Positions 5,256 through 21,991 of a stretch of 22,535 nucleotides of DNA are shown piece after piece (positions within the stretch are counted from its first letter, which is position 1; each line of letters starts with the position of its first letter). The notes beneath the pieces are model-generated. The model ran no database searches, had not been told where the DNA came from, and saw only the letters and a list, made by a program, of their open reading frames with translations. Location of the stretch: NCBI GenBank assembly GCA_964388035.1, contig CAYLZE010000084.1:1-22535 (forward strand), given 5' to 3'. A program made the translations under genes and the position numbers. This stretch comes from an uncultured archaeon. GTDB taxonomy: Archaea; Asgardarchaeota; Lokiarchaeia; Sigyniarchaeales; SOKP01.

Positions 5256-7004
5256 TTGGTGATAAAAATTTCAAGAAAAATATTAAGAGTTAACATGAAT
5301 GATCTCTCAGTGAAGTATGAAGATTTACCTGAAGAATACTACGCATTAGGCGGCAGGGGATTAACCTCTACGATTATTGCCAAGGAAGTACCTCCCACGT
5401 GCCATCCATTGGGGCCTTCCAATAAGATTGTATTTGCTCCTGGGTTAGTAACTGGCACGTTTGCCCCGAGTTCGGGAAGAATCTCGGTGGGAAGCAAGTC
5501 ACCTTTAACAGGGGGCATTAAAGAAGCCAATGCCGGAACAAGCTTTTCACAAATGATTGCTCGCCTGCGAATAGCTGCTATTATTATAGAAGGTCGAGCA
5601 AAAGGAGAAGATAAATATTTACTAAAAATAGATAAAGATGGTGCCACATTAAGTAAAGCTAACAAATGGTTGGGAAAAGGCTTGTATGAGGTGTATAAAG
5701 ATCTTTTTAAGGAGTTTGGGGAGAAAGTCGGTATTTGTAGTGTTGGAATTGCAGCAGAACTATTAGGAGCAAATACTGGCGTCTGCTTTAATGATACTGA
5801 AGGGCTTCCTAGCCGATATGCCGGAAGAGGAGGTCTTGGAGCCGTGATGTATTCAAGAGGAATTAAAGTTATCATTGCAGATGATGCAGGTGCACCCGGT
5901 GTTGAAATTAAAAATGAAGAGTTATTCAAACAAGGAACGCGAAAACTGGTACAAGCTTTAGCTGCTCATGACGTGACGAAACCCGGTGGAGGTTTATCAT
6001 CCTATGGAACAGCCGTTTTAGTAAATATTATTAATGAAGCAGGAGGATTACCCCAAAAGAATTTCTCGTCAGGGCAATCAGATTTAGCCTCCTTGGTATC
6101 GGGAGAAAAGAAAGCGGAAGAGATTCAAAAAAGAGGAGGAAAGCGTCCTCATGTGTGCAATCCAGGCTGTGTAATTCAGTGTTCAGAAGTTTGGACGGAA
6201 CCAGGCGGTAAAAAACCTTTAGGAGTGCTTGAATATGAATCCGTTTGGTCGTTAGGACCAAATTGCGGAATTTATGACTTGGATCAGGTCGCAGCATTAA
6301 ATCGACAGTGTAACGACTTGGGCATGGATACTATAGAAACCGGAGATGCGATAGCTGTTGCTATGGAAGGAGGAGAATTGAGCTTTGGGGATGGAAAAGC
6401 TGCATTTAAGCTTTTAGAGGAAGTAAGAAAGAAAATGCCCCTCGGAAGAATTATTGCTAATGGTACGGATTTTACGGCTCAAGCTTATGGTGTGTGGAGA
6501 TCTCCCACGGTTAAAGGGCAAAGCATGCCAGCATATGACCCGAGAGCAATAAAAGGAATAGGAGTAACATATGCTACCACACCGATGGGCGCAGATCATA
6601 CTGCAGGATACGCAATTGCAACTGAAATAATGGGTGTCGGTGGAACTGCAAATCCGTTGGATGTCAAGAAATCAGATCTTTCTCGTAATTTGCAGCTAGC
6701 TACTGCTGCGATTGATGCTTCGGGCTATTGCCTATTCATTGCTTTCGCGGTTCTTGATATCCCTGAAGGCTTAGTAGGGGTAGTAGAGTCTTTAAATGGG
6801 GTGCTCGGAACTAACCTCACGGTGGAAGATGTCCCAAAAATCGGGCAACAAATCATAGATACGGAATTAAACTTTAATAAAGCAGCGGGATTCACTAAAA
6901 TAGATGATAGGCTTCCGGAATTCATGAAATTAGAACCTCTAGCACCAAAAAATGAAGTCTTCAACGTTTCTGATGAAGAACTTGATAAAGTATTTGGAAA
7001 TTAG
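5256..7004 (+). CDS. aor: Tungsten-dependent aldehyde:ferredoxin oxidoreductase (AOR family)
   Basis: ILRVNM, LGGRGL, KSPLTGGIKEANAG, AGRGGLGAVM, 4Fe-4S ligands C-x3-C-x3-C (CNPGCVIQC) plus distal GYCLF, EYES, CNDLGMDTI, PAYDPR, GADH. The start could be TTG 5256 or GTG 5259. Confidence 0.93.
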   Translation: MVIKISRKILRVNMNDLSVKYEDLPEEYYALGGRGLTSTIIAKEVPPTCHPLGPSNKIVFAPGLVTGTFAPSSGRISVGSKSPLTGGIKEANAGTSFSQMIARLRIAAIIIEGRAKGEDKYLLKIDKDGATLSKANKWLGKGLYEVYKDLFKEFGEKVGICSVGIAAELLGANTGVCFNDTEGLPSRYAGRGGLGAVMYSRGIKVIIADDAGAPGVEIKNEELFKQGTRKLVQALAAHDVTKPGGGLSSYGTAVLVNIINEAGGLPQKNFSSGQSDLASLVSGEKKAEEIQKRGGKRPHVCNPGCVIQCSEVWTEPGGKKPLGVLEYESVWSLGPNCGIYDLDQVAALNRQCNDLGMDTIETGDAIAVAMEGGELSFGDGKAAFKLLEEVRKKMPLGRIIANGTDFTAQAYGVWRSPTVKGQSMPAYDPRAIKGIGVTYATTPMGADHTAGYAIATEIMGVGGTANPLDVKKSDLSRNLQLATAAIDASGYCLFIAFAVLDIPEGLVGVVESLNGVLGTNLTVEDVPKIGQQIIDTELNFNKAAGFTKIDDRLPEFMKLEPLAPKNEVFNVSDEELDKVFGN

Positions 7005-7015
7005 GGATTGCAGAG

Positions 7016-7300
7016 ATGGGTATTAAAGTTAAACTCTTTGGAGATTTAAAGAAGAAAATTAAAAATCACGATACTCCTACAGGATCTCCATATATCACGA
7101 ATATAGATGCAAGAACTGTGAAAACTGTCATGGATGTATTAAAAATGTTTTCAATAGAGCCATCTGAAGTATATCACATCTTTGTCAATACTAATTATGC
7201 CGGATTCAGTAAAAAAATCAACGACGGAGATATAGTCAGTTTATTTCCCCGCAACATGTCCGTTTTGTATAAATGGTATTTTAATCGAGAAGAAGATTAA
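7016..7300 (+). CDS. MoaD/ThiS-like beta-grasp (ubiquitin-like) protein lacking the C-terminal Gly-Gly
   Basis: N-terminal IKVKLFGDLK, TVMDVL, IFVN and INDGDIVSLFP are typical MoaD/ThiS/SAMP motifs. It lies 11 bp after the aor stop and ends ...LFPRNMSVLYKWYFNREED. Confidence 0.85.
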   Translation: MGIKVKLFGDLKKKIKNHDTPTGSPYITNIDARTVKTVMDVLKMFSIEPSEVYHIFVNTNYAGFSKKINDGDIVSLFPRNMSVLYKWYFNREED

Positions 7301-9542: not shown

Positions 9543-11804
9543 ATGAATGGAAAAAAGGAAAGTGCTAGCCAAAGAGAAGATTTAGTAAATGATAAGGATT
9601 TTTTTAGGTCCATTTCACAGCAAGTAAAAGATTCCATAATAGTCACTAATACAGAATTTAAGATTATTTATGTAAATAAATCCACAGAAGATTTATTTGG
9701 TTATACAGCAAAAGAATTAATCGGTAAACGTCCAGATATCTTAAATTCAGAGCCTACTGCCAATGAAATTCAAGCACAAATTTATCAATCAGTATTATCT
9801 AATAAAGTCTGGACAGGTATTCATCTAAATAAGAAGAAAGATGGCATGAAATTCTTCTGTGAAATGAAAGTGTCACCTATTGAAAATTTTGAAGGTGAGA
9901 TAATTGCTTTTATAGGTATTAAACGAGACATAACAGAACAAATGAGGTATCAACAAGAATTAAAAGAATCAGAAGGGCGATTAAGAAATTTAGTTAATAA
10001 TATTACCGATATCATCATTGAGAATGATCTCGACGGTACCTTTTTATATATTAGTCCTCAAATTAGTGAGATATTAGGATATACTCCTGAAGAGGTGATT
10101 GGAACCAATGCATTTAGCTATGTTCATCCGGATGATCTAAGCATGCTTCAAGATATAATGAGACGTGCTATTAGATCCAAAGAGCAAATAAATGCAGAGT
10201 ATAGGGCAATACATAAAAATAAGTATTATATTTGGATATCTGCCATTGGAAATGTAATAAATTATGGAGATAAAAGTCGTATTATAGCAATTTTAAGGGA
10301 TATCACTGATCAAAAACGGAAGGAGCAAGAAATAAAGAATTCAGAAGAGAAATTAAAAAATCTAATCAATAACATTACAGACATTATCATTGAATTAGAT
10401 CTTCAGGGAAATTTTTTATTTGTGAGTTCTCAAGTCAATGAAATCTTAGGCTTTTCACCAGAAGAAGTAATTGGTACCAATGGTTTTAAATATATTCATC
10501 CTGAGGATTTAAAAAAAGCATTTGAAGCATTACAAAATGGAATTAGCCAGAAAAAAAGAATATATTTGGAACTTAAAATTCTACATAAGCAAGGCCATTA
10601 TATTTCTGTGTCTGCTACTGGCAATGTAGTTAATTCGAAGGGAAAAGGATGTATTATTGCTGCAATAAGAGATATCACAAAACAGAAACAAATAGAGCGG
10701 GAAGTAAGGGAATCAGAAGATAAATTCAGAACCATTGCGGAGCAATCCTTCATGGGTATTTTAATCATCCAAGAAGATAAAATGGAATATGTAAATAAAG
10801 CTTTATTAGAGATGTTTGAATTTTCTAAAGAAGAAATGGAAGGGTGGACAAAAGACGACCTTGTCAAATTAATTCATCCTGATGACCTGCAATACCTCAG
10901 GGAGTATCGTCAGAAGTTAAGGGAGGGCATCTCGGGTTTAAAGATTTATTATTCCTATAGGGTTTTTACTAAAAGAGGGAAAATGAAATGGATAGATCAA
11001 TTTACCAGAGTAATTTCATATAAATCTAAACCTGCAGAATTTGTTACTATAATGGATATCACGGAAAAAAAGGAAGCAGAACAGGAATTAATGAGATTAA
11101 ATAACTTAAAAAATGAATTATTGCGGAGAACATCGCATGAATTAAAGACCCCGCTCGTTGCAATCAAGGGATTTTCGAATCTTATTTTGGAACTCCATCA
11201 AAAGGATTTGAGTGATGATGTAAAGCAATATATTGAAGAAATTAAGGGAGGATGTACTCGACTCGAAGGTTTAATTCAAGATATCTTGGACACTTCTAAA
11301 TTGCAATCTGGAATGATAAAATTGGAAAAAGTTCAAGGAGATTTAACTATACATATTAAAGAATGGATAAATGAATTAAGAGGATTATTAGAGATGCAAG
11401 GGCACACTCTCCATGTTGATCTCCATTCCCACATTATCATTTATTATGAGGAAGAACAGATACACAAGGTTTTCACGAATCTATTAAGCAATGCAATCAA
11501 ATATACACAACGAGGTGGAGAATTATATATAAAGTCTGAGATTAAAGACGAGTCTTGTATCATATCTATTAAAGATAATGGAATTGGAATCTCAGAAGAA
11601 GAAAAATCGATAATCTTCCAACAATTTGGTAAAATAGAAAGATATGGCAAAGGATTGAACATCATATCTGAGGGAACTGGTCTGGGCCTTTACATCTCCA
11701 AAAAGATTATAGAATTACATGAAGGTGAGATTTGGTTTACCTCCGAAGGAAGGGAAAAAGGGGCAACTTTTTATTTTTCACTTCCCCTACAAAAGAATGC
11801 CTAA
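9543..11804 (+). CDS. Cytoplasmic 4xPAS sensor histidine kinase (PAS4-HisKA-HATPase_c)
   Basis: Four PAS/PAC units ending RDITE, RDITD, RDITK and MDITE. H-box TSHELKTPL, N-box NLLSNAIKY, DNGIG, GTGLGL. No TM segment. Confidence 0.95.
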   Translation: MNGKKESASQREDLVNDKDFFRSISQQVKDSIIVTNTEFKIIYVNKSTEDLFGYTAKELIGKRPDILNSEPTANEIQAQIYQSVLSNKVWTGIHLNKKKDGMKFFCEMKVSPIENFEGEIIAFIGIKRDITEQMRYQQELKESEGRLRNLVNNITDIIIENDLDGTFLYISPQISEILGYTPEEVIGTNAFSYVHPDDLSMLQDIMRRAIRSKEQINAEYRAIHKNKYYIWISAIGNVINYGDKSRIIAILRDITDQKRKEQEIKNSEEKLKNLINNITDIIIELDLQGNFLFVSSQVNEILGFSPEEVIGTNGFKYIHPEDLKKAFEALQNGISQKKRIYLELKILHKQGHYISVSATGNVVNSKGKGCIIAAIRDITKQKQIEREVRESEDKFRTIAEQSFMGILIIQEDKMEYVNKALLEMFEFSKEEMEGWTKDDLVKLIHPDDLQYLREYRQKLREGISGLKIYYSYRVFTKRGKMKWIDQFTRVISYKSKPAEFVTIMDITEKKEAEQELMRLNNLKNELLRRTSHELKTPLVAIKGFSNLILELHQKDLSDDVKQYIEEIKGGCTRLEGLIQDILDTSKLQSGMIKLEKVQGDLTIHIKEWINELRGLLEMQGHTLHVDLHSHIIIYYEEEQIHKVFTNLLSNAIKYTQRGGELYIKSEIKDESCIISIKDNGIGISEEEKSIIFQQFGKIERYGKGLNIISEGTGLGLYISKKIIELHEGEIWFTSEGREKGATFYFSLPLQKNA

Positions 11805-11917
11805 CCAAAAAAAAAGGTTTTTGCTCTTATAAGTCGAAATATTTCTCATTATACCATCATTATGATCCTTAATTGCTAAATAGCAAAAGAATATTAAATT
11901 TAAGCGTGGATAGTATC

Positions 11918-12982
11918 ATGAAAATTATTGCAATTACTAAAGGCGATGGCGTAGGTCCAGAAGTGGTTCAAGAGGGAATAAAGATCCTACAAGTAATTAA
12001 AGAATATACCAATTTTGAATTTGAATTAAGGGAAGCGCCCGCGGGTGGAGCAGTTTGGAAACAACAAGGAATTAGTCTTCCTGAGAAATCTTTTAATACT
12101 ATAAAAAATTCCGATGCGCTCTTGTTTGGGGCAATTGGGCTTCCGGGCTTGCCGTTAGGCGTGGCAGAGATAGCAATCCTAACCATAAGGCAGGAATTAG
12201 ATTTATACGTTAACATGCGTCCTATTAAGCTCTATGAGGCTTTACGAGATCGATGTCCGCTTAAAGACGAATTTATTGGAGAGGGCATCGACATCACATT
12301 TATTCGAGAGAATACAGAAGGGTTATATGTGAATATTGGAGGGATTTTAAAAAATGAAGTAGCACAAAACCTCATGATCTATACCCGAAAAGGTTGTGAA
12401 CGGATCATGAGGTATGCATATGATTTCGCCACGAGAGTCCACCATCCCAAAATAACTTCCGTGGATAAAGCAAATATTTTAAAGACAAGTCTTCTATGGC
12501 GCCAGATCTTTCATGAAATCGGAGAAAATTATCCTAATTTGGAGAAAGAAGATATCTATATTGACTCTTTTTGTCAATGGTTAATACGTGCCCCCCATTC
12601 CTTTCGGACAGTGGTGATTGGAAACATGTTTGGCGATATTGCCAGCGATGAAGCTGCTTTTTTAATAGGGAGTTTGGGCATGGCATCTAGCGGCAATATA
12701 AATCCCGGAGGAGTCTCGATGTATGAACCAATTCATGGTTCAGCACCCGATATTGCGGGGAAAAATATTGCAAATCCTATTGGAACAATCCTAAGTGTTA
12801 AATTAATGATGGAAGAATCTTTTCAGCAACCAAAAATTGGAAGCACTATTGAGAAGGCGGTTGAAGAGGCACTCACAGAGGGAAGAACCGTGGATATTAA
12901 AAATCCCACATTAAAAACCTTGAGTACTAGAGAAATGGGTGACTTGGTAGCAACCCATTTGAAAAAGCTCTTAAAAAAATAA
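11918..12982 (+). CDS. leuB: 3-isopropylmalate dehydrogenase (isocitrate/isopropylmalate dehydrogenase family)
   Basis: GDGVGPEV, LLFGAIG, IRQELDLYVNMRP, RENTEGLY, SVDKANIL, NMFGDIASD, YEPIHGSAPDIAGKNIANP. ATG 11918 is preferred over TTG 11873. Substrate specificity within the family cannot be proven by eye. Confidence 0.82.
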   Translation: MKIIAITKGDGVGPEVVQEGIKILQVIKEYTNFEFELREAPAGGAVWKQQGISLPEKSFNTIKNSDALLFGAIGLPGLPLGVAEIAILTIRQELDLYVNMRPIKLYEALRDRCPLKDEFIGEGIDITFIRENTEGLYVNIGGILKNEVAQNLMIYTRKGCERIMRYAYDFATRVHHPKITSVDKANILKTSLLWRQIFHEIGENYPNLEKEDIYIDSFCQWLIRAPHSFRTVVIGNMFGDIASDEAAFLIGSLGMASSGNINPGGVSMYEPIHGSAPDIAGKNIANPIGTILSVKLMMEESFQQPKIGSTIEKAVEEALTEGRTVDIKNPTLKTLSTREMGDLVATHLKKLLKK

Positions 12983-13133: not shown

Positions 13134-13559
13134 ATGGTAAGTGAAGAAACGTTAAAAAAATTAAAAGAATTGCAAGAAAAAGGGGCTACTGAGCCTCGAG
13201 ATGCCTTGGTATTATTTAATGCGTATAAAGAAATTGCTCAAGAAGATGAAGATATTAAAGAAGAATTAGAAGATTTGGACATTATTGTGGTGCAAAATGT
13301 CTATACTGACGCTGATTTTAAATATTGGGTGAAGTTAGGAGAGGGCAAGTATGATGTTGGAGAAGGGGTTGCCGATGATGCTACCGTGACCATGAGTGCG
13401 AATACTGCTACATGGAGCGGATTAGGATCAGGAGAAATGGATGCTACGAGCGCTTACATGTCAGGGGATTTAGCAATAGAAGGAAATTTACAAGATGCTA
13501 TCGCTTATGGTGAGATCTTAGAAATGTTTAGAGATTTTCTCGAGGATTTACAAGGTTAA
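13134..13559 (+). CDS. SCP2 sterol/lipid-binding domain protein
   Basis: Acidic 141 aa protein with GEG-x-x-DDATVTMS, W-x-x-L-x-SGEMD-x-x-x-AYMSGDL-x-IEGNL-x-x-A (SCP2 signature). Confidence 0.9.
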   Translation: MVSEETLKKLKELQEKGATEPRDALVLFNAYKEIAQEDEDIKEELEDLDIIVVQNVYTDADFKYWVKLGEGKYDVGEGVADDATVTMSANTATWSGLGSGEMDATSAYMSGDLAIEGNLQDAIAYGEILEMFRDFLEDLQG

Positions 13560-13688
13560 TTATCGAATTCCCCTTAGATTAATTCTCATCTTTCATCTCT
13601 TATTTATAACTAATTTATTTTTTTCTGCTTTTATGAAATTACTTTTAGAGTGAGAATCTAAACATAACGTGTTAGAATTGCGATATTT

Positions 13689-14609
13689 CTAAACGGACAA
13701 GATTTTATTTTGATGATATTGAGAAATGGAATGCAGGTAAAAAAATTCGTTATTTTCAATCACTTTGAGTTGCTTTAATACGGTATAAAGAAGGTGAAGT
13801 CCGTATTTTGTTTCAAATTTTGACATTAAAACAAAGATGAGTTTTTCAAATTCATTTAATCCCATATCATTTATTTCATGATCAGGTAGAACAAGTTGAT
13901 ATTCTTCTAAAAATCTTTTCACATCTTTAATACATACTGTTTTAACATTCTCATCCATGAAGCGAGCGAGTTTCAGCTTGTTGTGAGTAAAAGGAAGCAA
14001 AGTTAGTGAGGGCATTTCTCCAGGAATGAGGGAGCGCTTATTTTTAGAGTAGCGATAATATTCAAACCCTGATCGATATCTTTTTCTTTCTTGATATTGA
14101 GCAAAATACAAGGGATATATAGAAGTAGCAATTCCCTCTTTTAGAGCATTAATATAGTAAACCCGCCCGTAATAAAGTTGATTCAAAATTTTTTCTAACG
14201 AACTAATTTGTCCTCCATGATAAATATAAGGATATCTTGAAAAAGAACTCCCATTAAAAATCCATAAAACGTGAAGATTCTGCTTGGTGTAATCCGAAGT
14301 ACGATCGAGTAATTCACTAGAGCTCATGGGCGAGTGCTGAATTTCTATCACAATTCTTTTTTTGTTTTCTAATTCCAGATAAATATCTGCTCGTCGATTA
14401 TTAAATACCTTTTCTTCAACGATTTTTTTCACGTTATTATCCAAGGGTAAGTTATCCATGAGATATTTTTTTATACGCACGTGTTCAAATGATTCGGATT
14501 TGGAGTTCTGGTCGATTAGGTATTTATTTCCTAAATCTTGAGCGGCATTAGGATGAATCTTTTTTTGATCTTTTTTATTATGGGTGAATTTCTTAATCAT
14601 GAAATGCAT
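13689..14609 (-). CDS. CoiA-like PD-(D/E)XK-fold nuclease domain protein
   Basis: SES-x-x-H-x-x-IK, E, RRADI, IVIEIQHS-x-MS-x-x-EL-x-x-RT-x-x-Y, VLWIF match the CoiA nuclease pattern. The start may be the second Met (MIKK). Confidence 0.8.
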   Translation of the reverse strand: MHFMIKKFTHNKKDQKKIHPNAAQDLGNKYLIDQNSKSESFEHVRIKKYLMDNLPLDNNVKKIVEEKVFNNRRADIYLELENKKRIVIEIQHSPMSSSELLDRTSDYTKQNLHVLWIFNGSSFSRYPYIYHGGQISSLEKILNQLYYGRVYYINALKEGIATSIYPLYFAQYQERKRYRSGFEYYRYSKNKRSLIPGEMPSLTLLPFTHNKLKLARFMDENVKTVCIKDVKRFLEEYQLVLPDHEINDMGLNEFEKLIFVLMSKFETKYGLHLLYTVLKQLKVIENNEFFYLHSISQYHQNKILSV

Positions 14610-14865: not shown

Positions 14866-16416
14866 TTAGGGAAGCATTGAATTAATCGTGCTTAACATTA
14901 TCTTTAATTGATCATAGATTTCCAAGGTATATTCTAATCCTAATTTAAAAAAGAGAACAGAAACCATTTTCTTTTCAAGATATTCACTCACATCTAACCA
15001 TTCTAACAACTTTGACCAGTCAAGTACACCACTAATGCGAATACCTACCAGAATTACCTTGTTTTCTTCAATTTCATCTATGATCTTAATGAGAGTTTCT
15101 TTCCACTGAGGGTTAAATCGGTCTTCTTTCCTTCCATCAAAAATTATCAAGACACCATCCGCATTAGAAACATCAAAATTTGAGGGCAAATAACTCTTTA
15201 TTATTAATCCCTTATTAAATTGATAAATTTTCTCTTCTTTTTTATCTTCGGAGAAAGAACAATTATTAATATTTTCCGTCTCGCATAAAATTTGAAGACC
15301 CGGATTCCAAAACGCAGTCTCTGTAATAAAGATCAACTTGAGAGGTCTTTTCTTTGCAAGAATTTGATCTATTTCTTTAGATAAATCTTTTTGTAATCTA
15401 TTTTCTTCTTCATCTTTTATTTTCTGGATATAATTGAACGCAATTAGACTGAAAGCATCTTCCACGTTCTCTCCACTTAGGGCACTCGTTTCTATGTAAG
15501 AAATTCTCTTATTGGGGAGATTACCAGCTAATTGAACCCCTTCCTGGTAGGTAATAACACGTTGATCTTCCAAATCCATTTTGTTTCCAACAATGATGAT
15601 AGGAATATCAATTTGGGGAATGAAGGCATTTAGTTCCTCAAACCACGACTTAACATTTTCGTAGGACTTTTTATCTGTCAGACTAAACACAATAAAAGCG
15701 GCTTTACTTCCCTTATAATACGTGCGACGGAAGCGTTTAAAATATTCTTGAGCACCTATATCCCAAAGGGAAAATGTGATTTCATTTCCAATTAAATCTA
15801 TAGAATGGGTAGTAATATTAATGCCAATTGTGGCACGATAATCCCGTGAAAACTTTTTCTCAACAAAGCGGCGAATAATTGAAGTTTTGCCTACTTCATG
15901 ATCTCCGATAATAATGAATTTAAACCTATAACGACCACCACGGTTTAAATGTAATTGATAAATTTGATTCTTGATTCGCGCGATGTCTTCAGCTTCATAC
16001 TCAAAATTGGGAACAGCAACTTGGATCATATCGTAATCCCCGGCTTCTAATATTTGCGCGGATTTTTCAGCCAGAAAATAGCCATAAGGGGAAATCTTAT
16101 CAATCGAAGCTAAATTGTCTAAGACAATAGATATAATATTTTTTTCATCAATAGAAATGAATAATAAACGGTATTGATCAGTATCAAAGGTTGCCGAACC
16201 GAACCGTTTGAAAGCGAATTCATTGCGGATCCGCTGTAAAATGGGATTAATGATGCTTGTTAATACAGATACGATTTCCATGTCAATTTCTTTTCTTTTT
16301 TCACCCGCAATCATTAACCCATGTTCATCAGAAACGACGATTCCTACGACCTCTTGTTTTTCACTAAGAAAATTATGGAATAGCGTGGAAAAAATTTGAT
16401 TTCTATCTAGGACCAT
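14866..16416 (-). CDS. Roadblock/LC7 domain + Rab-like small GTPase + C-terminal degenerate G-domain fusion protein
   Basis: N-terminal helix plus GIVVSDEHGLMIA (Roadblock signature). G1 GDHEVGKTS, G2 YRATIG, G3 WDIGAQ, YYKGS, G4 GNKMD, G5 ETSAL. The C-terminal ~160 aa contain LKLIFIT / ADGVLIIFD / VILVG strands. Confidence 0.9.
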   Translation of the reverse strand: MVLDRNQIFSTLFHNFLSEKQEVVGIVVSDEHGLMIAGEKRKEIDMEIVSVLTSIINPILQRIRNEFAFKRFGSATFDTDQYRLLFISIDEKNIISIVLDNLASIDKISPYGYFLAEKSAQILEAGDYDMIQVAVPNFEYEAEDIARIKNQIYQLHLNRGGRYRFKFIIIGDHEVGKTSIIRRFVEKKFSRDYRATIGINITTHSIDLIGNEITFSLWDIGAQEYFKRFRRTYYKGSKAAFIVFSLTDKKSYENVKSWFEELNAFIPQIDIPIIIVGNKMDLEDQRVITYQEGVQLAGNLPNKRISYIETSALSGENVEDAFSLIAFNYIQKIKDEEENRLQKDLSKEIDQILAKKRPLKLIFITETAFWNPGLQILCETENINNCSFSEDKKEEKIYQFNKGLIIKSYLPSNFDVSNADGVLIIFDGRKEDRFNPQWKETLIKIIDEIEENKVILVGIRISGVLDWSKLLEWLDVSEYLEKKMVSVLFFKLGLEYTLEIYDQLKIMLSTINSMLP

Positions 16417-16641
16417 GGGTAAACCTCATCATAAGAAAATAAAAAACAAAATCTTTAAGATATTACAATTACAATTTATTAAAAAAACTTTAATGTATTA
16501 AAATTAAGCCAAAGAATTTCTTCAATTAAAAAGGAACATGATTCTTGTTAAAAATAATAAAACTCCCTCGTTATCTGAAGGCAAATTCTTAAAAATAAGT
16601 ATTTTCATTATTATTTTAATTTTTGGTATTGAATTAGAATA

Positions 16642-16648
16642 TTTATAA
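16642..16648 (+). promoter_or_regulatory. Candidate TATA box (TTTATAA) of a probably leaderless RING-TPR transcript
   Basis: TTTATAA starts 27 nt upstream of ATG 16669, and there is no SD sequence. Confidence 0.45.
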
Positions 16649-16668
16649 TTATCATCTAATATTAACAA

Positions 16669-17244
16669 ATGCCTACTTGCATTATATGCCACTTGGATAT
16701 GAGTTCTACACCTAATGGAATTGTGGTATGTCCTAATGGGCATGCTGCACACGAGAATTGTTTTAAAGAATGGTTCTTACATTCTAAAAATTGTCCCTTA
16801 TGTCATGAGCCTTATGGTTCAGAAGTTCTGAGGAAATATGAATTGTTTATCAGACAAAAGGAAAAGGAAATCCAAGAAGAAGAAAATAAAATCATTCATC
16901 AAAAGAAGATAAAGAAAATTGAAGTGATCACCGATAGAATTCGATTTCTAAAATTTGTCGAAGCAATAGATTTCATGATCGAGAAAAAGCAATATTCTAG
17001 TGCTATAGCAATGCTCAACAGCTATAAAGAAGAACTTTTAACTTCTCAGCAAAAGCAGATGTTACTTTTTTTACGAGGGAAATTAAATTATTTAAGACAG
17101 AAATATGACCTAGCAATTGGCACGCTATTCAAGCTAGTAAAAGAAAAGTTCGATTATCCCGAAGCATTTTTATATTTAGGCAAAGCATATAAAGCCATTG
17201 GATTAAATGACAAAGCAAAATGGGCTTTTGAACGAGCAAAATGA
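16669..17244 (+). CDS. RING-H2 finger + coiled-coil + TPR protein (putative E3 ubiquitin ligase)
   Basis: C4,C7,C21,H25,H28,C31,C42,C45 give C3H2C3 spacing, with the conserved W (KEW) and CPLC. A charged helix ([13 protein letters not shown]) follows, then TPR motifs ([15 protein letters not shown]; [26 protein letters not shown]). Confidence 0.88.
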
Positions 17245-17295
17245 GGGCGTGATAAGTTAAATAAGTTTTTTTTGATCTCCTTCTCTTTTTTATAT

Positions 17296-18711
17296 ATGAA
17301 ACCTTCTTGTCTCACCATTGCCGGATTTGATCCCTCCTCAGGTGCAGGAATCAGTGCAGATCTAAGAACTTTTGATCGAATTGGGGTTTTTCCATTTTCT
17401 GTAATAACAGCTATCACGTACCAGTCCATGAGGGAGTTATATGGATATCATCCTTTATCGAAAGAGCAAATAATAAGGCAAATAGATGCTGTTTTAAAAA
17501 ATTACCCTGTAAAGCATGTAAAAATCGGCATGATTCCTAATGCAGATAGTTTGAAGGTCATTGTTGAGAAACTAAAGGAATATAATCTCACGGCAGTCTT
17601 GGATCCCGTAACCATTTCTAGTGCGGGAAAACGATTATCAGAGATAAATCTGGAGGATCAAATAAGAGAAGAACTGCTTCCTCTTATAACGGTAATCACC
17701 CCAAATTTGAATGAAGCACGTCTGTATTCGAAAATGGACATTCCTTCAAAACAATTAAATAAAGATAATGTTAAGAAGATGGGACTCAAAATTCTTGAAA
17801 AAATGTTTGATGAGAGAAACGAAACAGAACCATTGGACACTATAAAAGCAGTAGTCATAAAGAGCGCTTTAGAAACAGAACATACCATGATAGATCAAGC
17901 TTTTATTGGAACAATGGTAAATCAAACTATCGAGAGAGAGGTCGTAACTCATGAAAAGAATAAGGTAAAGTTTGAAGGCAACATCCACGGGACGGGATGT
18001 GTTTTTTCATCCGCAATAGCGGCTTATTTAGCCCAGGAAAATTCAGTAAAAGCCGCAATCACCTTTGCAGAAGAATTTTTTAATCTACACTTTCAAAATT
18101 ACATAACTTTTCCTGATATGGGCAAAACACTGGATTTATCTTTTCCGGAAGAAAAAGTTGCGATAATAAACCAAATAAAAGAAATCTATAATTTTATATC
18201 GAAAATTAAGAACTTCAGTAAATTAATCCCCGAAGTGAGAATGAATATTTCGGGGGCATTGCCCGATGCTAAATCAAAATTTGATGTCGCGGGTATTGAA
18301 GGCCGAATCACGATTATAAATGGATATCCTCAAGCTTGCGGTGAAATTAAATATGGGGTTTCAGATCACACTGCAAGGCTGCTATTAAATGCTCAACAAT
18401 TTGATGCATCCATAAAATTCGTGATGAATTTAAAGTATGATCCTAAATTGGTTGAACTATTACTTGAAAACACCGATTTAAATTTGCAAGAAATTTTACG
18501 GGAAAGACAACCAGAGGATATAAAAAGTAAAGAATATTCGACCATGCAATGGTTAATAAAAGAGAGTGTCGAAAAAATGGGAAAGATTCCCGATATTATT
18601 TGGGACAAGGGTTCTCCGGGTAAAGAACCCATGATTCGATTGTTTGCCAAAAGTGGTCCAGATATTATTTTAAAATTAAAGAAAATTCTGGGATTTGTGG
18701 ATTCAATCTAA
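17296..18711 (+). CDS. thiDN: Bifunctional HMP/HMP-P kinase (ThiD) - thiamine-phosphate synthase (ThiN) fusion
   Basis: [37 protein letters not shown] and HGTGC (ThiD). [18 protein letters not shown]-x-S-x-H-x-AR and [19 protein letters not shown] (ThiN). ATG 17296 is preferred over TTG 17272. Convergent with thiC. Confidence 0.9.
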
Positions 18712-20252: not shown

Positions 20253-20954
20253 TTACGGATCTTTCCACCACTTTGGATAGTCTTTCTCTTCTTTACCATC
20301 TCTATAATAGAAAATCAATTTATCCCTTGTTAATTGAAGGATAAATCCCTCGAGATATTGTATCCAATCCTTACATTTTGCAATCCCTGCCCAATAGAAA
20401 AGGTAAGTGAGAATGTGTAAATCATGAGACACCAAAATATTAACTTCTTTTGGCTTTACCGATTTGGAAATTCTCATTATTTCTGAAAAAGTTCTTTGAG
20501 CAACTTGAACAGCAGGTTCAATATGCTCCGAGGGGTATTGACTCCCGGTCCAGAATTGCATGAATTCTCTATTATCACGTCCTATATATTCAACTATTTT
20601 TTCAGAATCACCATTAATTTTCAACAAGGTTTCCATTTCACCACCATAAATTGTCTTCCCATTTTTAGCTTGGATGCCTTTTTGAATGCATTGACTAGTC
20701 TCCCTACATCGCTCCACAGAGCTGTGATATAAGTGATAAGTTAAATCTTCTGGCAAACTATTCCCAAATTCAAATGCAGCTTTTTTTCCTTGTATAGTTA
20801 AGGGAGCATTTAATACATCCATGATATCTGGTGGTTCTTCCCGTTCCGAATGACGGATTATAATGAAGGTCGGTAATTTATAATCCAATTCCCTAAGAAA
20901 GACAACGATATTTCGAGCTGGTTCTCCCCATGGCACTTCAGATAGAATACTCAT
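20253..20954 (-). CDS. Histidine phosphatase superfamily protein (phosphoglycerate mutase-like)
   Basis: IIIRHS (RHG variant), PLT-x-x-G, HSS-x-x-RC-x-ET, LVSHD. Confidence 0.88.
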   Translation of the reverse strand: MSILSEVPWGEPARNIVVFLRELDYKLPTFIIIRHSEREEPPDIMDVLNAPLTIQGKKAAFEFGNSLPEDLTYHLYHSSVERCRETSQCIQKGIQAKNGKTIYGGEMETLLKINGDSEKIVEYIGRDNREFMQFWTGSQYPSEHIEPAVQVAQRTFSEIMRISKSVKPKEVNILVSHDLHILTYLFYWAGIAKCKDWIQYLEGFILQLTRDKLIFYYRDGKEEKDYPKWWKDP

Positions 20955-21091
20955 TGTTTTTTTCCTATTGATAATTTAATTCTTTTTAGAAAATATGAGA
21001 CACGAATTTTAATGGAAGAAGTAATAAGTAATTTACAATAATAATTTAAATAAACATTAAATAAAATTTGATTTTTTAATAGGTGGCATTA

Positions 21092-21991
21092 ATGGTCAGT
21101 AAAGGAATGCAATTTGTTTTAAATATATTAACTGAGCAAAACAAAAAAGCAATTGAAAAAAGAGTTCAGGAATCAAGAAAGGGGCTAGAAGATCTAGCAA
21201 AAATGGTAAAAGTGGCAAAAGATATAAAGGTTGAACCTATTGACGCGGAAGGCGTACCCGGAGAATGGATAATCCCCCCAGAATGCGAGGAAGATAGAGT
21301 GATATTATATTTACATGGCGGATCTTACATGAGTGGTTCATTAAATAGTCATCGAGAATTGGCATCTCGAATAGCAAGAGCTTCAAAAACTAAAGTTTTG
21401 ACAATTGATTATAGATTGGCTCCAGAACATCCTTTTCCTGAAGGTTTGGATGACGCCACTAAGGTATATAAGTGGTTAATCCAAAAACAGAACTTCAATC
21501 CCAAGAATATAGTGATCACGGGAGATTCTGCGGGAGGGGGTCTAACACTGGCAACTTTATTGAATCTCAAGGAGAAAAAAATCCCATTACCCGCTGCTGG
21601 AGCATGTTTATCTCCTTGGACGGATTTAGGACTCACGGGAGAATCCTATAGGACTAAAGAAAAAGTAGATCCAATGGTCACTCCTGAAGGATTAAGGTTT
21701 GAGGCAAAATTATATTTAGGAGCCAATGACTTTAAGGAACCATTAATATCCCCGCTTTATGGCAATCTAGAGGGCCTACCGCCCTTATACTTACAAGTAG
21801 GGACTAATGAAATTTTATTGGATGATTCAGTTCAATTTGCAGAAAAAGCAAAAAGGGAGGGAGTAGAGGTGACTTTAGACATCTGGGAAGATATGATCCA
21901 TGTATTTCCAGCTTTTGCGGCATTCGCATCCGAAGGACAAGAAGGGGTCGAAAAAATAGGAGAATTCATTCGAAATATCTTCAAATTATGA
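21092..21991 (+). CDS. Alpha/beta hydrolase, HSL family esterase/lipase
   Basis: YLHGGS oxyanion motif, DYRLAPEHPFP, nucleophile GDSAGG, LSPW, E-x-L-x-DD, MIHVF. ATG 21092 follows the SD-like AGGTGG at 21081-21086. Confidence 0.93.
   Translation: MVSKGMQFVLNILTEQNKKAIEKRVQESRKGLEDLAKMVKVAKDIKVEPIDAEGVPGEWIIPPECEEDRVILYLHGGSYMSGSLNSHRELASRIARASKTKVLTIDYRLAPEHPFPEGLDDATKVYKWLIQKQNFNPKNIVITGDSAGGGLTLATLLNLKEKKIPLPAAGACLSPWTDLGLTGESYRTKEKVDPMVTPEGLRFEAKLYLGANDFKEPLISPLYGNLEGLPPLYLQVGTNEILLDDSVQFAEKAKREGVEVTLDIWEDMIHVFPAFAAFASEGQEGVEKIGEFIRNIFKL

Follow-up and report, generated by a model that had tools for sequence, protein, structure and literature searches.

Head-to-head order of a three-domain GTPase gene and a RING-H2/TPR gene in one family of Lokiarchaeia

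Introduction

Among the characteristic features of membrane and nutrient signalling in eukaryotes is the control of small GTPases by ubiquitin. In a stretch of 22,535 nucleotides from an uncultured Lokiarchaeon (contig CAYLZE010000084.1, the whole of which is called the window hereafter), a gene for a Roadblock-GTPase protein and a gene for a RING-H2/TPR protein stand head-to-head, and an original prediction, made from the letters alone, had read them as a candidate regulatory module. If it were true that the RING-TPR protein acts on the GTPase, such control would be older than the eukaryotes, and the locus would provide an instance of ubiquitin-type regulation of a small GTPase in a prokaryote. 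The question raised by this locus is whether the two genes make up such a module or are neighbours by inherited gene order. This report discusses the two proteins, the conservation of their genes within and outside one family, and the explanations which may account for the arrangement.

The locus

The gene pair is real: two ORFs lie head-to-head in the ORF listing of the window, and the start codons of both genes are consistent with the orthologue alignments. The earlier description of two eukaryote-signature genes diverging around a 252-bp AT-rich gap agrees with these ORFs and with the GC content of the gap. The genes and the gap are as follows.

14866..16416, minus strand: three-domain GTPase gene, 516 aa (ORF list, 25-sequence orthologue alignment, AF2 model)
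16417..16668, no strand: divergent intergenic region, 252 bp, 19% GC
16669..17244, plus strand: gene for RING-H2 finger, helical linker and TPR, 191 aa (ORF list, full-length orthologues)
17272..18711, plus strand: thiDN, HMP-P kinase fused to ThiN thiamine-phosphate synthase, a context gene (Pfam Phos_pyr_kin E 7e-57, ThiN E 7e-50)

The thiDN gene is co-directional with the RING gene and lies 27 bp downstream of its end, and on the other side CoiA-like and SCP2 genes are placed between the GTPase gene and an Iso_dh gene. The genome (5.47 Mb) has 75 Ras-family matches and 4 RING matches, for which the chance of at least one Ras-family/RING neighbour pair is about 10%. Adjacency is thus not improbable in one genome, and the significance of the pair comes only from conservation across genomes. 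The pair was not found described in the literature searched.

The three-domain GTPase protein

The orthologues of the GTPase gene have a mean column identity of 64% in the 25-sequence alignment, and the AF2 model of the 516-aa protein has a mean pLDDT of 77.5. Three domains were assigned.

16042..16416, minus strand, about aa 1-125: divergent N-terminal Roadblock/LC7 domain (hhalign, weak orthologue matches, topology)
15412..15939, minus strand, about aa 160-335: Rab-like small GTPase domain (Pfam Ras, Foldseek, motifs)
14869..15351, minus strand, about aa 356-516: C-terminal domain of Arf-like fold, a predicted pseudo-GTPase (domain model, Foldseek, motif absence)

The N-terminal domain is a Roadblock/LC7 (MglB-like) domain by both profile match and fold. 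Profile-profile comparison by hhalign with the genome's own Roadblock proteins, which are MglB-like, gave a probability of 95% (E 3.3e-8), and the AF2 topology is alpha-beta-beta-alpha-beta-beta-beta-alpha (H-E-E-H-E-E-E-H). The window sequence alone scores 13.8 bits, under the Pfam cut-off of 23; weak Robl_LC7 matches occur in 16/25 orthologues, and the sole PDB sequence match of the domain is 7YH1, a Roadblock/LC7 protein.

The central domain has the motifs of a Ras-superfamily small GTPase. Pfam Ras matches residues 166-326 with 162.6 bits (E 7.7e-48), and the best Foldseek matches are Ypt1, Rab8, Rab1, Rab4 and a Thorarchaeota Rab (TMt 0.74-0.89, 31-40% identity). The motifs G1 GDHEVGKT, G3 WDIGAQ, G4 NKMD and G5 ETSAL are invariant in the 25-sequence alignment. 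The G3 motif, in switch II, is an unusual DIGAQ as against DxxGQ: the Asp and the Gln are kept, the canonical Gly is replaced by Ala and a Gly stands one position earlier. Among the 38 strongest Ras-family matches scanned in the genome, DIGAQ is restricted to the two three-domain paralogues.

The C-terminal domain was modelled with a pLDDT of 92.9 and a pTM of 0.90, and its best Foldseek matches are GDP-form Arf-family GTPases, including the Asgard HodArfR1 (E 2e-6, TM about 0.65, 10-15% identity). Neither a GxxxxGK[ST] P-loop nor NKxD was found in this domain in the orthologue alignment, and we infer that it is an Arf-shaped pseudo-GTPase which would be unable to bind nucleotide.

Two closer identities were considered and rejected. 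The domain is not a Rag/Gtr protein, since Gtr1_RagA scores 21.7 bits, under its cut-off of 22 and far under the 162.6 of Ras, the Roadblock precedes the G domain and the domain at the C-terminus has the shape of a GTPase. It is not a true Rab either, since the G domain is internal and there is no C-terminal Cys motif; the likeness is one of fold. Both the Roadblock and the GTPase domain of the fusion first proposed were confirmed, but the analogy to Rag GTPases was wrong in detail, the protein being Rab-like by fold and Pfam with the Roadblock at its N-terminus.

Asgard fusions of Roadblock or longin domains with GTPases have been listed as R-G architectures, some with extra "?" domains (Tran et al. 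2024, PMC10933270). The present protein resembles them in its N-terminal Roadblock on a small GTPase in a Lokiarchaeon, its Rab-like fold and its lack of a prenylation cysteine. It differs in that the "?" would here be resolved, by the model, as an Arf-shaped pseudo-GTPase, in that G3 is DIGAQ and not DxxGQ, and in having a RING-TPR neighbour conserved in one family. According to the same paper, GTPase genes of MK-D1 do not as a rule share operons with their regulators. Like MglA/MglB, the bacterial Ras-like GTPase and its Roadblock GAP, it pairs a Roadblock with a Ras-superfamily GTPase, and its Roadblock domain matches the MglB-like proteins of the genome; unlike MglA/MglB, it is one fused chain with a Rab-like G domain and an added pseudo-GTPase.

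The RING-TPR protein

The second gene codes for a small protein with two recognizable parts.

16675..16812, plus strand, aa 3-48: RING-H2 finger (zf-RING_2, invariant ligands)
16963..17241, plus strand, about aa 99-191: TPR module, 2-3 repeats (family profile)

The finger has the C3H2C3 ligands in canonical RING-H2 spacing (C4-x2-C7-x13-C21-x3-H25-x2-H28-x2-C31-x10-C42-x2-C45) and scores 32.2 bits with Pfam zf-RING_2, above the cut-off of 27.3. None of the eight ligands, W35 or P43 varies among 27 orthologues, and the family profile matches the RING-H2 E3s ARK2C/RNF165, HRD1, RNF24, EL5, AMFR and RLIM. Hydrophobic, Trp and Pro positions that contact the E2 are established in RING biochemistry, and they correspond here to the conserved hydrophobic I6 (C-x-I-C), W35 after ligand 6 and P43 after ligand 7. 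In many E3s E2~Ub is activated by a linchpin, an Arg or Lys that follows the final cysteine of the RING; this position is variable, being H46 in the window and H, R, N, D, S, T, A or F in relatives.

The TPR signal of the single sequence is under the Pfam cut-offs (TPR_11, 15 bits vs 26.8). The family profile, on the other hand, clearly matches solved TPR proteins, which are built of 34-residue helix-turn-helix repeats: over positions 104-191, E is 1.6e-31 for consensus TPR proteins, with the repeats taken together, 4e-11 for MamA and 3.6e-10 for Cdc27. The RING-H2/TPR designation was thus borne out on both counts. Full-length orthologues occur in 122 of the 134 family genomes as well as in two other families belonging to the same order. 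In genus g18 of the sister family f3 there are forms of 570-700 aa with the RING-TPR at the C-terminus and no Pfam match in the remainder; fused (Rosetta-stone) forms were not found among the longer proteins, which is weak evidence.

The protein is most likely a ubiquitin-E3-type adaptor, and it is a cleanly defined, order-wide candidate for a RING-H2/TPR ligase. CHIP/STUB1 is likewise a small single chain in which a TPR client-binding module is joined to an E2-docking module by a long helix. However, the order is reversed here with the RING first, the docking module is a zinc RING-H2 and not a U-box, and the neighbouring GTPase has no EEVD-type tail.

Conservation of the pair within the family

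The GTPase and RING genes are adjacent and divergent in 102/102 genomes (median gap 185 bp), this set consisting of the genomes of one Lokiarchaeial family for which the two orthologues are listed on the same contig, and the same pairing was seen in four further genomes on inspection of their loci. In the family loci compared, the GTPase-RING adjacency was found in 19/19, RING-ThiDN in 16/17, Iso_dh-GTPase in 11/15, ThiDN-ThiC in 9/18 and ThiC-NUDIX in 8/19, and insertions fall at convergent junctions. The GTPase-RING junction is the most stable of the neighbourhood, unbroken in more than 100 species-level genomes of at least 12 genera, and it has stayed intact although identity between the RING proteins is down to 38-50%. 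His_Phos_1 and Abhydrolase_3 (20253-21991), a divergent pair of the window taken as a control, were adjacent in only 2 of 7 sampled loci with the hydrolase orthologue, so divergent junctions are not stable by default. Furthermore, both genes are, where assessable, jointly present or jointly absent: the genomes G059 (98% complete) and G071 (94%) are without both, and ThiN survives elsewhere in them. The unbroken junction, the unstable control pair and the joint loss fit selection for keeping the pair together and count against a neutral gene order.

The gap itself holds one conserved element.

16583..16597, plus strand: TATA-like element with CTTAAAAAT at 16588-16596, conserved, 73 bp ahead of the RING start codon

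Homologous gaps in relatives are 102-260 bp long, and this element is the only block which aligns across 20 intergenic regions; it may serve as the TATA box of the RING gene. The 252-bp gap presumably holds the promoters of both genes, in which case breaks there would not be tolerated, and co-expression of the pair is possible. An Rfam scan found no family in the window and hence no riboswitch or ncRNA in the gap.

The genes outside the family

The original prediction proposed a synteny check across Lokiarchaeia and Asgard genomes. The pair is always divergent and adjacent across the one family, but the arrangement stops at the family boundary. In f2 and f4 both gene families are present on different contigs or in different contexts, and the three-domain homologues there adjoin FMN_dh and GluRS, not a RING gene. 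In the sister family f3, the C-terminal pseudo-GTPase domain is present in 0/14 genomes, and the two genomes examined have two-domain Roadblock-GTPases only. The RING-TPR orthologue of f3 (230-250 aa) adjoins an ABC transporter, as in half of the genera, or sits near ThiDN/ThiC, being next to them or within two genes in the genera G010, G011, G012 and G022. The RING-TPR gene is older and more widespread than the three-domain GTPase. Neither adjacency beyond general synteny nor independent recurrence, by which a functional pair would be recognized, was found, the pairing being absent in f2, f3 and f4. In addition, the paralogous three-domain GTPases, on contig C126 of the same genome and in G080, have no RING neighbour.

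An older linkage group of the GTPase via FMN_dh was also considered and rejected, since the window gene at 11873-12982 is Iso_dh by Pfam, unlike the FMN_dh neighbour in f4.

In G011 and G016, small Ras GTPases are found two genes upstream of the RING gene; this proximity was judged compatible with chance, GTPase genes being many.

Ubiquitin machinery and interaction

The expectation that the organism would have ubiquitin, E1 and E2 held: the genome codes for 7 ThiF/E1-like proteins, 3 E2s (UQ_con) and 2 ubiquitin-like proteins, with an E2-E1-Ub cluster at C42:13764-15861. There are three E2/E1 clusters, on contigs C42, C38 and C13, and the RING gene is outside all of them.

Distance-matrix (mirror-tree) comparison over 19 loci, a weak method which paralogy may blur, gave a RING-GTPase correlation of r 0.46 (partial r 0.24). 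Co-evolution specific to the pair was not seen, as the two proteins have r 0.52 and 0.53 with ThiC. Complex prediction with the full GTPase protein and the RING-TPR protein, both as alignments, gave a score of 0.00 and a mark of 0.32 and weighs neither way.

Explanations of the arrangement

The explanation which we favour, by somewhat more than an even chance, is that two real, conserved Lokiarchaeial (Promethearchaeota) genes are joined by family-level gene order and not by dedicated GTPase regulation. The first gene would code for a GTP switch in a single chain, its Rab-like G domain standing between a Roadblock and an Arf-shaped pseudo-GTPase; by analogy with MglB or Ragulator, the Roadblock may act as a built-in regulator or dimerisation platform. 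In the second protein, an E2 of the genome would bind to the RING, and a client to the TPR. As the RING-TPR gene has the longer history and the broader distribution, is about equally tied to thiDN and occurs without the three-domain GTPase in f3, a general-purpose ligase or adaptor is most likely. The head-to-head order would date from the ancestor of one family and have passed to essentially every member of it, probably with promoters back to back in the short gap. The locus thus serves as a warning that even a head-to-head pair without a break in one family may owe its persistence to inherited gene order.

A module within the family is a doubtful but serious alternative: the RING-TPR protein would serve as E3 or adaptor, with the GTPase protein bound to its TPR as substrate or partner, and a bidirectional promoter would co-regulate the two. 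The divergent adjacency kept perfectly family-wide while a nearby control pair is not, the joint loss in G059 and G071, the complete E1/E2/Ub set and the retained E2-contact positions (the C-x-I-C hydrophobic, W35 and P43) all argue for it. However, adjacency is the sole link and is confined to one family though f2 and f4 hold both gene families. Moreover, the RING-ThiDN junction is nearly as stable and has the wider phylogenetic range, the RING-TPR gene is older than the GTPase and persists without it in f3, no specific co-evolution was detected, the paralogues are without a RING neighbour, the linchpin position is not conserved, and the orthologue alignment has no conserved TPR-type (EEVD-type) tail at the GTPase C-terminus. 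The module first proposed is partly supported: of the conditions named as refuting it, a pairing not conserved in related genomes and a lack of E1/E2/ubiquitin do not hold as stated, although conservation ends with the family. A fuller form, in which a working RING-H2/TPR E3 captures the GTPase protein by its TPR, perhaps in a nucleotide-state-dependent manner and from one bidirectional promoter, and in which this arose after the ligase had served other clients, is unlikely. As with RagA/RNF152, a RING-type ligase-like protein, a Roadblock-containing GTPase and Ub/E1/E2 are encoded in one organism; unlike that case, the GTPase is Rab-like with an N-terminal Roadblock. RNF152 is a membrane-anchored RING without TPR.

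With inherited gene order as the preferred reading, the more modest value of the locus now lies in the ligase candidate and in the predicted Roadblock, Rab-like DIGAQ GTPase and Arf-shaped pseudo-GTPase architecture.

It is improbable that the RING gene is the first gene of a RING-thiDN transcript whose product acts on, or is regulated with, proteins of thiamine synthesis or salvage, the GTPase being a bystander. The co-directional thiDN at 27 bp, the RING-ThiDN adjacency in the family and the four f3 genera with ThiDN/ThiC nearby are in its favour, but half of the f3 genera have the RING beside an ABC transporter, G152 has a 632-aa gene inserted between RING and ThiN, and ThiN persists without the RING gene in G059 and G071. 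In addition, we know of no biochemical link between RING/TPR proteins and thiamine synthesis.

It is also improbable that the RING-H2, stabilised by zinc, is a module of a TPR scaffold for binding protein or nucleic acid, which would make the ubiquitin reading void. The variable linchpin residue and the place of the gene outside the three E2/E1 clusters are in favour of this, but active RING-H2 E3s have the same ligand spacing and the same I/W/P positions for E2 contact, and archaeal cascades of E1, E2 and small RING proteins have been reconstituted (PMC5654768). As in the Caldiarchaeum and Asgard ubiquitin operons with a small RING finger protein (PMC5654768), an archaeal RING shares its genome with ubiquitin and its E1 and E2; unlike in those operons, the RING gene lies away from the Ub/E1/E2 clusters, carries a TPR and neighbours thiDN and, in one family, the GTPase gene.

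Gene Pair and Genomic Setting

The original prediction described two eukaryotic-signature genes arranged divergently around an AT-rich gap, and this arrangement is confirmed: the open reading frames (ORFs) stand head-to-head, separated by 252 bp with a GC content of 19%, and both start codons match the orthologue alignments.

14866-16416, minus strand: ORF of the GTPase gene, 516 aa
16588-16596: TATA-like CTTAAAAAT element, placed by intergenic alignment
16669-17244, plus strand: ORF of the RING-TPR gene, 191 aa

The single alignable block in the GTPase-RING intergenic regions compared is this TATA-like element, followed by an AT-rich stretch, a layout consistent with promoters placed back to back; the aligned regions show no evident shared operator. 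The window is contig C84 in an assembly of 5.47 Mb and 211 contigs (completeness 96.7%, contamination 7.3%), and the proteins closest to the RING protein carry Promethearchaeota or Candidatus Lokiarchaeota MAG annotations, so the Asgard assignment of the window holds. As anticipated, ubiquitin, E1 and E2 occur in the genome (7 ThiF/E1-like, 3 E2 and 2 ubiquitin-like genes), including an E2-E1-Ub cluster on contig C42, and the RING-TPR gene lies outside every E2/E1 cluster. The genome has 4 RING hits in total and 75 Ras-family hits; the chance of such a GTPase neighbour for one of the four RING genes is about 10%, and the adjacency is unremarkable within one genome.

The GTPase Protein

Residues 166-326 of the 516-aa protein are a Ras-family domain (Pfam, E 7.7e-48), for which the Arf score is far below that of Ras and Gtr1_RagA falls marginally under the cut-off. 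The closest PDB structures to the AF2 model of the whole protein (mean pLDDT 77.5) are Ypt1, Rab8, Rab1, Rab4 and a Thorarchaeota Rab (target TM 0.74-0.89, identity 31-40%). Therefore, the G domain is Rab-like, not Rag-like, and the proposed analogy to Rag GTPases is not borne out. The nucleotide-binding motifs G1 (GDHEVGKT), G4 (NKMD) and G5 (ETSAL) follow the consensus and do not vary across the orthologue alignment. G3, in switch II, reads WDIGAQ (window 15748-15765), not DxxGQ, with Ala in place of the DxxG glycine and Gly one position earlier, and its Asp, Gly and Gln are invariant in 25 orthologues. When the 38 top-scoring Ras-family hits of this genome were scanned, the motif proved confined to the window GTPase and a three-domain paralogue with DIGAQ (contig C126, 10209-11831), the remaining hits having DxGGQ, DxAGQ or similar.

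A divergent Roadblock domain occupies residues 1-125. By itself it scores under the Pfam Roadblock cut-off; compared profile to profile, it matches Roadblock proteins of the same genome at 95% probability (E 3.3e-8), Robl_LC7 is matched weakly in 16/25 orthologues, the sole PDB sequence match is a Roadblock/LC7 protein and the AF2 order is alpha-beta-beta-alpha-beta-beta-beta-alpha. With the Ras domain beside it, the gene was correctly read as a Roadblock-GTPase fusion. Residues 356-516, modelled alone (pLDDT 92.9, pTM 0.90), resemble GDP-form Arf-family GTPases, one Asgard Arf among them (TM about 0.65, identity 10-15%), and inspection of the alignment shows that both P-loop and NKxD are missing; they consequently form a pseudo-GTPase domain. 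It further occurs as part of longer frames (837-962 aa; G047:C3:254784-263168 and G090:C144:2019-4883, from two other genomes), in which two three-domain units may have fused in tandem. Lokiarchaeial Roadblock-GTPase fusions bearing additional unknown domains are already known (PMC10933270). The GTPase and RING-TPR proteins are new representatives of known kinds.

Conservation of the Pair within the Family

Among 161 genomes of the class surveyed, the window's family (f1) has full-length RING-TPR orthologues in 122/134 genomes, and family f2 and the sister family f3 have them at 30-39% identity. Full-length orthologues of the 516-aa protein are found in nearly all f1 genomes. A GTPase orthologue is listed on the same contig for 102 of 118 RING orthologues, divergent in every case (102/102; median gap 185 bp, range 102-1261 bp). 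Four of the other 16 were fetched and all are adjacent and divergent; some of the remainder stop at contig edges, for example in G092. About 38 genomes have a second, tandem paralogue besides the first. Twenty f1 loci fetched from 11 genera broadly retain the block Iso_dh-GTPase-RING-ThiDN-ThiC-NUDIX, ThiDN being an HMP-P kinase/ThiN fusion gene, and the GTPase-RING pair is its most stable junction.

Junctions of the block: loci with the two genes adjacent / loci with both present
GTPase-RING: 19/19
RING-ThiDN: 16/17
Iso_dh-GTPase: 11/15
ThiDN-ThiC: 9/18
ThiC-NUDIX: 8/19

Divergent junctions are not stable by default, since a control divergent pair (window 20253-21991) is still adjacent in only 2/7 sampled loci holding the hydrolase orthologue. 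Insertions in the block occur at convergent junctions, and the additional genes at the Iso_dh-GTPase junction, present in the window's genus only (G000, G040), look like one such insertion at the level of the genus; in the rest of f1, Iso_dh is usually the direct GTPase neighbour.

13134-14609: SCP2 sterol-transfer-like gene and CoiA-nuclease-like gene, between GTPase and Iso_dh

Elsewhere in the window, upstream of Iso_dh, there is a gene (9543-11804) for a histidine kinase of 753 aa with multiple PAS domains (PAS x3-4, HisKA, HATPase_c). At 5256-7300, an aldehyde:ferredoxin oxidoreductase gene is directly followed by one for a 94-aa beta-grasp protein that matches Ub-Mut7C (E 2.9e-5).

The reading somewhat favoured is that these are two real genes whose head-to-head order is an inherited family-level gene order, possibly co-expressed. 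A true E3-GTPase module, limited to f1, is rather unlikely. Where assessable, the two genes are both present or both absent, which supports coupling weakly because one deletion suffices for adjacent genes; no RING-GTPase-specific signal was seen in distance-matrix correlation, and a literature search found no paper describing the pair. As a reconstitution target, the pair is reasonable but unproven.

Gene Order outside the Family

The synteny expected of the pair stands within one large family and fails in f2, f3 and f4. The pseudo-GTPase domain was detected in 124 of the 134 f1 genomes, also in f2, with weak matches in 2/4 f4 genomes, and in none of the 14 f3 genomes; the Roadblock-GTPases of two f3 genomes inspected are two-domain only, and the RING-TPR orthologue is retained in f3 despite the missing domain. 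Three-domain homologues in f2 and f4 (33-38% identity; loci L087-L089) lie in a different conserved context, beside FMN_dh (FMN-dependent dehydrogenase) and GluRS genes, on contigs separate from the RING gene, and no RING neighbour stands beside paralogous three-domain GTPases. In several genera the f3 RING-TPR gene converges on an ABC-transporter operon, and in four genera (G010, G011, G012, G022) it adjoins or lies within two genes of ThiDN/ThiC. Hence linkage of the RING gene to thiamine genes predates its linkage to the GTPase gene and extends more widely, and the GTPase linkage arose as a novelty of f1.

That the RING-TPR gene is functionally tied to thiDN is improbable. Their junction is co-directional with a 27-bp gap and nearly as stable as GTPase-RING. 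Two near-complete genomes of genus g11 (G059, 98% complete; G071, 94%) lack both the RING-TPR and the three-domain GTPase orthologue, and in them ThiN is present as a stand-alone gene with other neighbours (G059:C35, L083; G071:C41, L082). In two f3 genera the RING-TPR orthologue has a single-domain Ras-family GTPase two genes upstream (L070:8396-9073, L075:7901-8479); these genomes have many GTPase genes, and chance could account for the placement.

The RING-TPR Protein

The RING-H2/TPR reading proved right. Pfam zf-RING_2 exceeds its cut-off, the ligand pattern is C-x2-C-x13-C-x3-H-x2-H-x2-C-x10-C-x2-C, and the eight ligands, W35 and P43 are invariant in 27 orthologues; the family profile matches TPR proteins at positions 104-191. 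That the RING is not an E3 is improbable. Directly behind the final cysteine, the position that serves as linchpin in many active E3s varies among the orthologues; the C-x-I-C hydrophobic position is conserved, and the profile matches the RING-H2 E3s ARK2C/RNF165, HRD1, RNF24, EL5, AMFR and RLIM. In the f3 genus g18, the orthologue forms the C-terminal portion of 570-700-aa proteins (L072:9304-11400, L073:7987-9696, L074:4212-6236), whose N-terminal ~480 residues match nothing in Pfam and contain a second RING-like stretch.
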